Shown here: piece by piece, positions 4,217 to 14,682 of the stretch
How the letters are laid out: every line of letters begins with the position of its first letter
Position numbering within the stretch: the first letter of the stretch is position 1
Assembly: GCA_051294375.1 (NCBI GenBank)
Contig: CM119270.1
Span: forward strand, 3,078,812 to 3,094,016
Reading direction: 5' to 3'
DNA from: Paraspadella gotoi
Lineage: Eukaryota; Animalia; Chaetognatha
Length of the DNA: 15,205 nucleotides
The notes under the pieces: generated by a model
Told to the model about the DNA's origin: nothing
What the model saw: the letters and a program-made list of their open reading frames with translations, nothing else
The model's database searches: none
Made by a program: the position numbers and the translations under genes

Positions 4217-4227
<11 letters not shown>

Positions 4228-4362
4228 AGAGCAGAGAGAGAGAGACAGGGAGTCTCTTTCGCTCTTAACGTCAGAGTGGAACGTCAGGAGTGGGTGACGT
4301 TCGGAAAGAGAAGAGAGAGTTTTTTGTCTGTATCTTTTCGGCAGAAACTCTCTCTCTCTTCT

Positions 4363-4438
<76 letters not shown>

Positions 4439-4556
4439 TTTCGACTCCAAAACTTTCTCAGTTCGTCACGCTTGGGAGCCGCAACGTGATCCTTTCGCTT
4501 TATATCTCTAGAGATGAGAGAGAGAGAGGAAGGAGAGAGAGAGAGAGAGAGAAGAG

Positions 4557-4589
<33 letters not shown>

Positions 4590-4789
4590 AGAGAGATGGA
4601 TCCCTAACCTCTAGCGATTTGTCACCGTCGGTGTGGCGACGTCATTTGACGCTCAAATCTTTCGCGCTATTTGTCTCTACTTCCGGTTTATCGATCGAAG
4701 CTCCGATGGCATCGTCGTTGTCGTCGTCGGTCGTTTGTCATCGTCCTCGTCGTCTTCGTTGTTGTCATCGCCGTCGTCGGTCGTCGTCC
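4217..4789 (+). repeat. Copy 1 of a ~575 bp direct duplication (GA/CT blocks with unique spacers)
   Basis: Unique spacers (for example CTTTCTCAGTTCGTCACGCTTGGGAGCCGCAACGTGATCCTTTCGCTTTATATCTCTAGAGA) recur at 6291-6876. Confidence 0.95.
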
Positions 4790-6290: not shown

Positions 6291-6471
6291 AAGAGAGAGA
6301 GAGAGCAGAGAGAGAGAGAACAGGGAGTCTCTTTCGCTCTCTTAAACGTCCCAGAGTGGAACGTCAGAAGTGGGTGACGTGGTGAACGAGAAGAGAGAGG
6401 TTTTTTGTCTGTTCTTTTCGGTCAGAGAAACTCTCTCTCTTCTCTCTCTCTCTCTTCTCTCTCCTCTCTCT

Positions 6472-6524
<53 letters not shown>

Positions 6525-6631
6525 TTTTCGACTCCAAACTTTCTCAGTTCGTCACGCTTGGGAGCCGCAACGTGATCCTTTCGCTTTATATCTCTAGAGA
6601 GAGAGAGGAGAGAGAGAGAGGAGAGAGAGAG

Positions 6632-6680
<49 letters not shown>

Positions 6681-6876
6681 AGATGGACTCCCTAACCTCT
6701 AGCGATTTGTCACGTCGTGTGGCGACGTCATTTGACGCTCAAATCTTTCGCGCGATTTGTCTCTACTTCCGGTTTATCGATCGAAGCTCCGGATGGCATC
6801 GTCGTTGTCGTTCGTCGTCTGTTTCATCGTCGTCGTCGTCTTCGTTGTTGTCATCGCCGTTCGTTCGTCGTCGTCC
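6291..6876 (+). repeat. Copy 2 of the ~575 bp direct duplication, starting at a contig edge
   Basis: Same order of spacers and microsatellites as 4217-4789; differences are mostly 1-2 nt indels; begins immediately after a 25-N gap. Confidence 0.95.
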
Positions 6877-9689: not shown

Positions 9690-9854
9690 ATGGCGGTCAT
9701 GCAGGCGTACAACTCACTTCCGGCGACGCTGACGCTGCAGAGCGCCATCGGCGGCGGCGGCGGTGACGCCAATCCGCTCGTCGCCTCGGCGCTAAAGACG
9801 AACCAACAGATCTTCGCGCTCAACAACAACAACGATGCCGGATCCGACGAAGAG
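9690..9854 (+). CDS. Probable first coding exon of an unidentified spliced gene (MAVMQAYNSLPATLTLQSAIGGGGGDANPLVASALKTNQQIFALNNNNDAGSDEE, 55 aa)
   Basis: ATG in good context (GCG ATG G) with an in-frame upstream stop (TAA 9627-29). Third codon positions are strongly G/C against A-rich flanks. It ends exactly at a codon boundary on a consensus donor, GAG|GTGAGG (9854/9855). Downstream exons were not identified and could lie in the 11690-12404 gap or outside the window. Confidence 0.6.
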
Positions 9855-10060
9855 GTGAGGGGGGGGCGGGCTGTTGTTGTCGTCGTCGTTGTCGTTGATA
9901 TCCTATGCTTTCCTTGTTATTGTTTGCTATTTAGTAACATTTTAGGTTCTATTTGGAACCGATTTAATTTTAAAAGGACCAGTTAAAAAATGGACCTTAT
10001 TTTCCTGGAACGTCCCATTTTATCTTAATTATTGGAATTAATTATATTTTTTTTAATTAA

Positions 10061-12639: not shown

Positions 12640-12880
12640 GTGAGAGACAAATTTACCGTAAAATGGTTTGGTAATAAAAAGAGTTTTTAATGTAAAGAAA
12701 GGTTTTGCGTTTAATGTAATTTAGAAATGGTTTGTTTGTACAAAAGTAATCGTAAAGAAAGCGGATAATTTTTGTTCTCATTGGGGAAAAGAAATTTCGG
12801 CTTGAGATAACCCGGCACTGGGATTTAATTTTAGTGTGGCGAATCCTAAATTTGCCTCCCGTATTGCTTGATACAACTCA

Positions 12881-13130
12881 GCTCGTCCTATTGGCTTGGA
12901 CAGCTAAGTAATCGTTCACCAACCCAGAGTTCCGGGTTCAATCCCCTCACGGTCACGCTGGATAAAGTGTGATAGTATTGGCATAAACACGCCAGTGACA
13001 TGTGGTGGTCACTGCAGGTCCAAAGCCCTGAGCGCCATCTGTCCGGATATGCCTCATTCCCCGGGTTTCACATGTTCCCCCCTTGCAATAATAGCCTTCT
13101 TATACGAAAGAGGGTGAGTGTAAGGTAAGG
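12881..13130 (+). mobile_element. tRNA-derived SINE-like retroelement containing the twister ribozyme
   Basis: A-box-like TGGCTTGGACAG at 12892-12903, B box GGTTCAATCCC at 12935-12945, and partial acceptor-stem pairing (GCTCGT / ACGGTC). The body contains the twister, then a 3' stem-loop CCTTCT-N8-AGAGGG (13095-13114) and a short tandem tail GTAAGGTAAGG (13120-13130). No target-site duplication found; boundaries approximate. Confidence 0.65.
12958..13046 (+). ncRNA. Twister self-cleaving ribozyme, type-P5 circular permutation (this copy possibly partly decayed)
   Basis: Aligned by eye to the Oryza Osa-1-4 twister (P1-UAA-P2-GC-P3-P4/L4 GUCCCAAGCC-A-P2'-GA-T1'). P5 CTGGATAAA 12958-66 pairs with TCTGTCCGG 13038-46 (8 of 9 pairs including 2 G-U). 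P2 GTGT 12967-70 pairs with ACAC 12987-90. The conserved GA is at 12971-72. T1 TAG 12973-75 pairs with CCA 13020-22 (one central mismatch). A vestigial P1 lies at 12976-83 and UAA at 12984-86. T2 GC 12991-92 pairs with GC 13025-26. P3 CAGTGAC 12993-99 / GTCACTG 13008-14 is a perfect 7 bp. P4 CAG 13015-17 / CTG 13028-30 closes L4 GTCCAAAGCC, which matches the Osa loop at 9 of 10 positions. The conserved A13031 follows P4. Confidence 0.8.
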
Positions 13131-13266
13131 ACTTGTTCGATTGACTGCAGTTCGAGTTTTTCAATTAATTTTTTTCTCGGATCCTGAGTTCGAAACCTGA
13201 ATTGCTGATTGACACAAAAGGATATCAGCGACGAAATTTAATTTTAAAACTGGATATAAATTTTAT

Positions 13267-13816: not shown

Positions 13817-14463
13817 TAAAAGAAGGAAAGCGAAAAAAAAGTCTATTACCATAAAACGATTTTCCGTCTGGTATTAAAAAAAATTCAAATTAACGCGAAA
13901 AGAAAGAAAGGAAAGAAAAGATAGACAAGAGAGAGCAGAGAGAATGAGAGAGACGCAGCAGAGACGAGAGAGAGTGAGAGAGCAGAGAGAGTAGAGACTG
14001 AGAGAGAGAGAGACAGAGAGAGATTGCGCACGGGCCAATAGTTTGGATATTTTGAATCGACTGCCTTTTTAATAACTGGTGAGTTGTATGAAGCTATTTG
14101 ATTAAGATTGTATGACCAGTTTGACCACTGACCAAAGTGACCCTTCTGTCGTTGTTGTTACTGTTGTCTCTTTCACTGAGAAAAACCAATTATGAACTGT
14201 GATGTGAACGGTGAAGTAAACGTCCTCGAAACAGCGACTGGAACATCTGACGCCCTCAATGCTTGGCGTGAGAAAAAAAGCTTGGAAGCAAAAGAGCTTG
14301 GCGTTCAAACCGAAAAGAAAGTTAAGCTTCGAAAGGCGACGCGTGATCGCGAATCGGTTCTCGCGAGAGATGGGATGGAGAGATTGAGTGTGACGCAAAA
14401 TTTGGCGCAGGATTTTGCGTAAAAATGTGGCGCAGAACATAGAAATATCGATCCTTCATACGT

Positions 14464-14682
14464 GACACGGTGGTTCATTGAGTAAAGTCATCGGCTAATG
14501 ACCACTGAGTACCGGGTTCAATCCCGTTCGGGAAGCGTTAGGCCAGGACTGCGAGAGAGGGTTAAAGAAGTTGTGGAAGGTCATCATCTCTCCGCTTTGC
14601 GTCTTATCCACAGACGCGTGGGGGAAGAAGGTGGAAGATGAGGAGGAGGAGGAGGAAGAGGAGGAAGAGGAGGAAGAGGAGG
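14464..14682 (+). mobile_element. Second tRNA-derived SINE-like element (different body)
   Basis: A-box-like TGGTTCATTGAG at 14471-14482 and B box in CCGGGTTCAATCCCG at 14512-14526. No intact cloverleaf. A 3' hairpin GCGTCT-TATCCAC-AGACGC (14599-14617) is followed by a purine (GAG/GAA)n run to about 14682. The 3' boundary is uncertain. Confidence 0.55.

Follow-up and report, generated by a model that had tools for sequence, protein, structure and literature searches.

The window (the whole stretch of DNA analysed, 15,205 nt) is microsatellite-rich eukaryotic DNA, presumably of an animal, that includes 1,140 N. On its forward strand lies one 256-bp unit of a non-autonomous, high-copy repeat in which a Pol III-type promoter motif is joined to an internal twister ribozyme with type-P5 strand order (Table 1). 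This much of the initial annotation was borne out, as was its expectation that the tRNA-like head and the twister co-occur at other loci, since the two are joined in a high-copy family. No second copy of the element was found within the window. Elsewhere in the window, positions 4218-4789 and 6292-6876 form a 590-bp duplicate (92% identity) that adjoins an N gap and may be an assembly duplication, and an exon-like open stretch (9690-9857) has a GTGAG donor-like site at its end.

Table 1. Features of the repeat and its flanks (window coordinates).
Feature	Positions	Strand	Basis
Left copy of possible 4-bp target-site duplication, TTAG	12831-12834	+	3/4 match to 13091-13094
Whole repeat unit, 256 bp, likely solo LTR	12835-13090	+	read-contig depth and loose ends
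5' terminus TGTGGCGA, complementary over 8 nt (two G.T) to family 3' end	12835-12842	+	sequence and loose-end rows, by eye
7-bp hairpin upstream of tRNA-like part	12838-12856	+	7/7 pairs
Upstream A-box-like motif, TRGCY then directly YGG in most copies	12864-12874	+	contig majority tables
Second A-box-like motif (initial annotation), non-canonical spacing	12892-12899	+	sequence; no match to canonical-spacing pattern
B box GGTTCAATCCC in T-arm-like loop, inside outer stem 12922-29/12946-53	12935-12945	+	motif search and pairing
Closing P5 helix, register uncertain	12956-13046	+	pairing
Twister core, type-P5 order	12967-13030	+	pairing, shuffles, phage-based covariance model
Core parts, 5' half	P2' 12967-70, G12971, A12972, T1' 12973-75, P1 12976-83, UAA 12984-86
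P1, 8 nt: 2-bp hairpin as monomer, predicted 8-bp duplex between family copies; broken here	12976-12983	+
Predicted cleavage site U|A, repeat position 150/151	12984-12985	+	homology to twister UAA
Core parts, 3' half	P2 12987-90, T2 12991-92, P3 12993-13014, P4 13015-18/13027-30, L4 13019-26
7-bp hairpin in most copies, decayed here	13048-13068	+	loose-end rows at 13056, by eye
3' terminus, last bases TA, not CA	13083-13090	+	loose-end rows and sequence
Right copy of possible 4-bp target-site duplication, ATAG	13091-13094	+	sequence comparison
Stem-loop and (GTAAG)2 of initial annotation, single-copy flank outside element	13095-13130	+	depth 268, 74, 43 in X1-X3; 7 in X7

The limits of the repeat were read from contigs of four public sequencing runs aligned to 12760-13260, with 832-1,858 contigs in X1-X3. 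Summed depth in X1, which is not equivalent to copy number, reaches 1.6e5-6.4e5 over bins 12828-13048, compared with 118-268 on the flanks, and 12835-13090 is a high-copy repeat. In X3 the left flank has a depth of zero, a value that was disregarded. The repeat starts sharply at 12834/12835 (X1, 64 contigs; X2, 68; X3, 27) with a fixed TGT, and the sequence before it is random (flank agreement 0.43-0.45 in X1-X3). Loose ends at 13056 and 13072 continue into conserved family sequence until the equivalent of 13090. The bounds originally given for the element, 12881-13130, therefore have to be moved, to a start at 12835 and an end near 13090. The 3' stem-loop and (GTAAG)2 tail that had been counted as parts of the element lie in single-copy flank, and the fragment sizes of 104 and 146 nt forecast for the cleaved transcript are wrong because the bounds were wrong.

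The possible target-site duplication is a single site with one mismatch, weak evidence that would arise by chance at an estimated rate of about 8%. No duplication of at least 5 nt was found at this insertion when three starts and twelve ends (13084-13095) were tried, and the empty-site check in X7 yielded neither the joint nor an empty allele among 5 contigs. In the contig consensus rows, T tends to come second in the four-base stretches that flank the repeat, which hints weakly at a preference for certain 4-bp targets. This copy departs from the family majority at 18 of 224 sites, at each of which the majority letter accounts for 79-99% of depth. One X7 contig (398 nt, depth 82, where single copy is about 4-6) has the last 7 bases of the repeat repeated directly after its end, in the manner of a tandem tail. 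The same contig is missing one arm of the 3' hairpin and continues for more than 300 nt beyond the terminal 7-base repeat; it could represent an internal region, a subfamily with a tail or a copy inserted in another repeat. Viral and prokaryote contigs scanned with element patterns gave no match, and a single 21-nt metagenome match (L001) was dismissed as chance, as there was no similarity beyond it.

Of the promoter motifs, the B box was confirmed as GGTTCAATCCC, with an exact GGTTC, and is one of two B boxes in the window. The outer stem around it has 6/8 pairs in this copy and 8/8 with majority letters, in a register chosen post hoc. The A box had been placed at 12892, where canonical spacing is absent. 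Indeed, both A-box-like motifs depart from it: TRGCY and YGG, as defined in the Helenus paper (PMC10886601), are present and the spacer is missing. In this copy the upstream motif has decayed at 4 sites, and ARAGORN finds no tRNA. The first A-box-like motif and the tRNA-like part follow the fixed 5' end of the repeat at a distance of 22-29 nt, and no T-run of at least four occurs in this copy before 13157. A second tRNA-like head was identified at 14462-14535, with an A-box-like stretch near 14471 and a B box at 14515-25; it matches 18 of 19 nt of the element's B-box stretch, has a folding z-score of -0.05, and is probably another SINE-like remnant. Over 12867-12933, one contig of depth 1053 carries a tRNA-like head that differs at several positions and forms a separate variant; it comes from run X9, which is only guessed to be RNA and hence has no bearing on expression.

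The initial annotation proposed a complete twister at 12958-13046. Its parts are at the places proposed, with full Watson-Crick pairing in this copy for P2 (4/4), T2 (2/2), P3 (7/7) and P4 (4/4), L4 in place as TCCAAAGC, and both the catalytic G and the letters of the cleavage site present (G12971, A12972, U12984|A12985-A12986). Completeness holds for the family rather than for this copy: in registers set by the twister consensus, T1 has 2/3 and P1 1/2 pairs here versus 3/3 and 2/2 with majority letters. Since the majority letters restore both, the core is intact in most copies of the family and this copy is decayed, with T1 and P1 broken. Written with the motif already known, a descriptor of the P5-ordered topology matches once in the window, and finds nothing in 200,000 shuffles of the element or in 300 shuffles of the whole window.

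Independent references were provided by 125 phage loci, which yielded 52 distinct phage cores. A covariance model was built from nine P3-bearing phage P5 twisters, after four misregistered rows of a 13-row alignment were dropped. It matches the window end to end at 12965-13031 with 25.4 bits (rough E 4.3e-4), the next match in the window scoring 7.5 bits; four held-out phage twisters score 22.2-36.4 bits and the best background 15.2. The full-length match agrees with the P5 strand order, in which P2'-GA-T1' lies upstream of UAA. Thus, the twister fold is real and beyond chance. By homology to the UAA cleavage site of known twisters (PMC8501958), self-cleavage is predicted at U12984|A12985, although this copy, with T1 and P1 broken, is probably a poor cutter or inactive.

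A significant Rfam twister-P5 match, named as support for the initial call, was not obtained. No Rfam twister model matches the element at gathering level, while phage controls pass (Twister-P5 is assigned to 9/12 and 7/7 of the phage loci tested); the only hit is a partial twister-P1 match at 12993-13031, scoring 21.7 bits where the cut-off is 67.2 (E 0.03 and 0.008). The P3 insert was considered as the cause and rejected, because all five P3-bearing phage controls pass Rfam P5. The T1 pair U12973-A13022 departs from the Rfam consensus on both sides; the same variant occurs in 2 of the 52 phage cores, one of which, L064, scores 51.1 bits on Rfam Twister-P5. Of the 52 P5-ordered phage cores, 17 have a P3 hairpin that is absent from the Rfam Twister-P5 model, including the IMG/VR loci L014, L017, L018, L042 and L090.

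Closure of the P5 helix can be drawn in several registers. The one originally proposed, 12958-64 with 13040-46, pairs 7/7 in this copy and 5/7 with majority letters, and is thus private to this copy rather than a feature of the family. A register of 12957-61 with 13035-39, chosen post hoc, gives 5/5 with majority letters and 4/5 here, and an alternative of 12956-59 with 13031-34 gives 4/4. No fixed P5 geometry was found among the phage cores. A P1-type reading, with 12980-85 paired to 13048-53, was rejected, as P2' finds no match, GA is missing and the register is shifted by 2 nt.

The abnormal part of the core is P1, which spans 8 nt here compared with 15-34 nt in 52/52 phage cores. Forced into a monomer hairpin, the family octamer is unstable (+2.9 kcal/mol). 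As a duplex with itself it reaches -9.5 kcal/mol, against -2.1 for the octamer of this copy, and the resulting 8 bp are as many as P1 has in the Rfam P5 model. Retroelement hammerheads whose short stems are palindromic work as dimers (PMC6765202), and by analogy the short, self-complementary P1 suggests a ribozyme assembled from two copies. The signal is modest and suggestive, given that 36 of 256 inner tetramers would be self-complementary with the outer 2 bp in place. We would put dependence of activity on the dimer at a little below an even chance. The monomer may remain active, since twister cleaves, inefficiently, even without P1 (PMC8501958). A lone unit such as 12835-13090 would, on the dimeric reading, cut poorly.

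The start of a Pol III transcript is expected downstream of the fixed 5' end of the repeat. A SINE is hard to reconcile with a fixed end upstream of the expected Pol III start, whereas an LTR fits. The sharp TGT 5' end, the complementarity of the two ends over 8 nt and the possible 4-bp duplication also favour an LTR. Such an arrangement is known in Helenus elements, which have tRNA-like boxes within their LTRs, many solo LTRs, and Gypsy helpers deduced from the PBS (PMC10886601). In animals, Helenus LTRs measure 104-323 bp and are flanked by 4-bp duplications; in bivalves the tRNA-like part begins at LTR position 21-45, and some fungal Helenus LTRs likewise end in TA (PMC10886601). The TA at the 3' end, the single imperfect duplication, the non-canonical A-box spacing and the X7 contig with its terminal repeat count against an LTR. 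Neither a two-LTR copy nor an internal region was seen in the contig loose-end consensus and the window, nor a PBS or PPT in the loose-end consensus, although a consensus based on contig counts would hide a collapsed internal region. On balance we lean towards regarding the repeat as an LTR. Our preferred reading of the whole, with a probability of roughly 0.5, is that 12835-13090 is a decayed solo LTR of a Helenus-like mini-retrotransposon, and that the twister in the LTR would process its RNA in the style of plant retrozymes.

Two published Helenus sequences bear on this reading. Inspection by eye places a type III hammerhead core downstream of the B box in Helenus-2_SyJa-LTR and Helenus-2_SyUm-LTR, both wasp consensuses of 277 bp (PMC10886601 DataS1); its stem I has 7 bp, its stem II 4 bp and its loop-loop pairing 12 bp. 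The cut would fall at about 151 of 277, versus 150 of 256 here. The main text of the Helenus paper mentions ribozymes only inside a reference title (PMC10886601). From their sequence, these two LTRs look like unrecognised animal LTR retrozymes.

The reading closest to the initial annotation is of a SINE-like element, the twister counterpart of Sm-alpha, spread by target-primed reverse transcription. Here Pol III would make the RNA, a weak monomeric twister would leave much of it uncut, and a LINE enzyme would copy the uncut RNA from a short tandem tail. tRNA-derived Pol III elements with an internal hammerhead are known (PMC6765202, PMC2770079), twisters are linked to RTE LINEs (PMC8501958), and both the TA at the 3' end and the one contig with its terminal 7 bases repeated past the end are in keeping with it. 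However, the SINE and RTE-tail interpretation first advanced rested on flank outside the repeat, and the TGT 5' end 22-29 nt upstream of the tRNA-like part fits an LTR better: the first base, T, lies upstream of the expected start, and the tRNA-like head is not at the 5' end. The consensus past the 3' end is without a tandem tail in X1-X3, this site has no long duplication, and most copies are not tandem, unlike those of Sm-alpha, since the 5' flanks are random. The RTE twisters are moreover of P1 type at the 5' end of the element, not internal and of P5 type (PMC8501958). We consider this reading unlikely.

Penelope-like elements also use ribozymes that are dimeric via a palindromic short stem (PMC6765202), and the repeat could be a non-autonomous piece (pseudo-LTR) of one, with a tRNA promoter and with the twister in place of the dimeric hammerhead. 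Insertions of these elements are 5'-truncated, tandem or inverted, and favour microsatellites (PMC8557442). By contrast, this repeat has a fixed 5' end and random flanks and occurs only once in the window, which leaves this reading very unlikely. The fixed ends, the terminal complementarity and the possible 4-bp duplication would fit equally well with a MITE of a DNA transposon, having 8-bp terminal inverted repeats and 4-bp target-site duplications, in which promoter and ribozyme are captured passengers. Its inverted repeat is short and imperfect, and an RNA intermediate accounts more readily for an intact twister in the master copy that was amplified; we regard a MITE as most improbable. Whatever the class of the element, the twister could be a relic that no longer cuts, its P1 lost to disarm it and the family spread from uncut RNA. 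P1 is shorter than in any of the 52 phage cores and unstable as a monomer hairpin, the 3' segment 13049-53 can pair with the bases immediately before the cut, and 5' truncation is what a ribozyme placed after a SINE head would bring about (Kojima 2018, PMC5786205). Genomic copies starting at 12985, which had been expected to betray cleavage, are not among the main 5' ends: that position is absent from the six best-supported loose ends in X1, the smallest with 13 contigs (528 further rows follow), so that at most 13 contigs compare with 64 at 12834/12835. Against a relic, the majority letters keep every other core position and pair intact, T1 with its two-sided change among them, and the remaining P1 bases are self-complementary. 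We judge inactivity of the family ribozyme quite improbable.

Returning to the Helenus-like LTR, beyond the observed motif, repeat, ends and decay we infer a cycle of transcription, cleavage, circularisation and use of a helper. Pol III would start about 20 nt into the 5' LTR and, meeting no T-run there, would transcribe a short internal region into the 3' LTR. Two 8-nt P1 segments would then pair, forming two complete twister sites that would cleave each LTR at its U|A. The RNA between the cuts would carry a 5'-OH and a cyclic phosphate at its ends and lack a terminal repeat, and would for these reasons be circularised, by an RtcB-type ligase, before being copied by a Gypsy-type reverse transcriptase and integrase. 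In plant LTR retrozymes the RNA is cut in both LTRs, loses the R repeat, is circularised and is copied by enzymes of LTR elements (PMC4918200, PMC7761336), and RtcB circularises animal retrozyme monomers in vitro (PMC7229834). The initial annotation had noted that the cut would part the promoter from the body of the element, which we judge to be right as a prediction, given the internal position of the twister. The paradox of promoter loss would be resolved if the promoter lost from the 5' LTR were restored from the 3' LTR. It is possible, and we put this forward tentatively, that the element is an animal LTR retrozyme driven by Pol III, in which the twister fires only when two LTRs pair via the palindromic P1, which would restrict cutting and circularisation to full-length transcripts.

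To our knowledge, LTR retrozymes have been described mainly from plants and with hammerheads. If the reading is correct, a twister in a tRNA-promoter LTR extends the route from ribozyme to circle to retrotransposition to LTR parasites of animals, and gives twister a second role in retroelements besides 5' processing in RTE. Together with the wasp Helenus hammerheads it would establish a class of animal TRIMp3 elements that bear ribozymes, and it would be a dimeric twister occurring in nature, which the palindromic P1 makes directly testable in a simple in vitro assay. Such elements are likely to be under-counted, because the motif escapes the Rfam cut-off. The family may already be catalogued in Repbase or Dfam without its ribozyme having been noticed.

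The arrangement had been thought not to match a described family. This stands for the twister, as far as titles and abstract openings show; it does not stand for the general plan, since a tRNA head with an internal hammerhead is known from Sm-alpha (PMC6765202). Titles and abstract openings, a scope that excludes most subscription journals, contain no twister in a tRNA-headed SINE or in any LTR. PMC8490949 does not mention twister, and the available main text of preprint 10.64898/2026.07.22.740005 mentions neither twister nor tRNA. Naiad elements are without canonical hammerheads, and their insertions are truncated tandems (PMC8557442).

As to the ribozyme, the element shares with type-P5 twisters (Rfam RF02684) the order P2'-GA-T1'-P1-UAA-P2-GC-(P3)-P4-L4, the conserved G and A and both pseudoknots. 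It differs in having a P1 of 8 nt rather than an 8-bp hairpin, another P2 sequence and a score under the Rfam cut-off. About 1% of annotated twisters have a stem P5 (PMC6154101). A twister in a retroelement, described at the 5' end of RTE elements, and with a weak P1, is also seen in the T-variants of Perere-3 (RTE; PMC8501958); those are P1-type, lie at the 5' end of an autonomous LINE, have P1 completed by the flank and have no Pol III head.

As to the element, Helenus (TRIMp3; Kojima 2024, PMC10886601) resembles it in having a tRNA-like A/B-box segment 20-45 nt inside a short, TGT-starting repeat, in repeat length (within the animal range), in the possible 4-bp duplication and, on the LTR reading, in the many solo LTRs. 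The head here is far more degenerate, with no T-run behind it, and a twister takes the place of the hammerhead held by the two wasp LTRs. The accessible parts of that paper describe Helenus without any ribozyme, and text searches of them, in which line breaks can hide some matches, found no twister L4 motif in context in the Helenus consensuses. In Schistosoma, Sm-alpha and Sj-alpha combine a tRNA-derived Pol III promoter with an internal self-cleaving hammerhead and face the same problem of promoter loss, the cut parting promoter from body (PMC6765202, PMC2770079). They are SINE-like and often tandem, whereas the units of this family are single and dispersed, carry a twister and have fixed ends that resemble those of an LTR. 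The parallel proposed here with plant LTR retrozymes (Cervera et al. 2016, PMC4918200) covers a ribozyme in a short LTR, 4-bp duplications and solo LTRs, and a cut-to-cut RNA without R repeat that is circularised before copying. Theirs is a type III hammerhead in an LTR of 300-400 bp, with no tRNA-type promoter mentioned in the accessible text; the element described here has instead a twister, probably dimeric, placed behind a B box.
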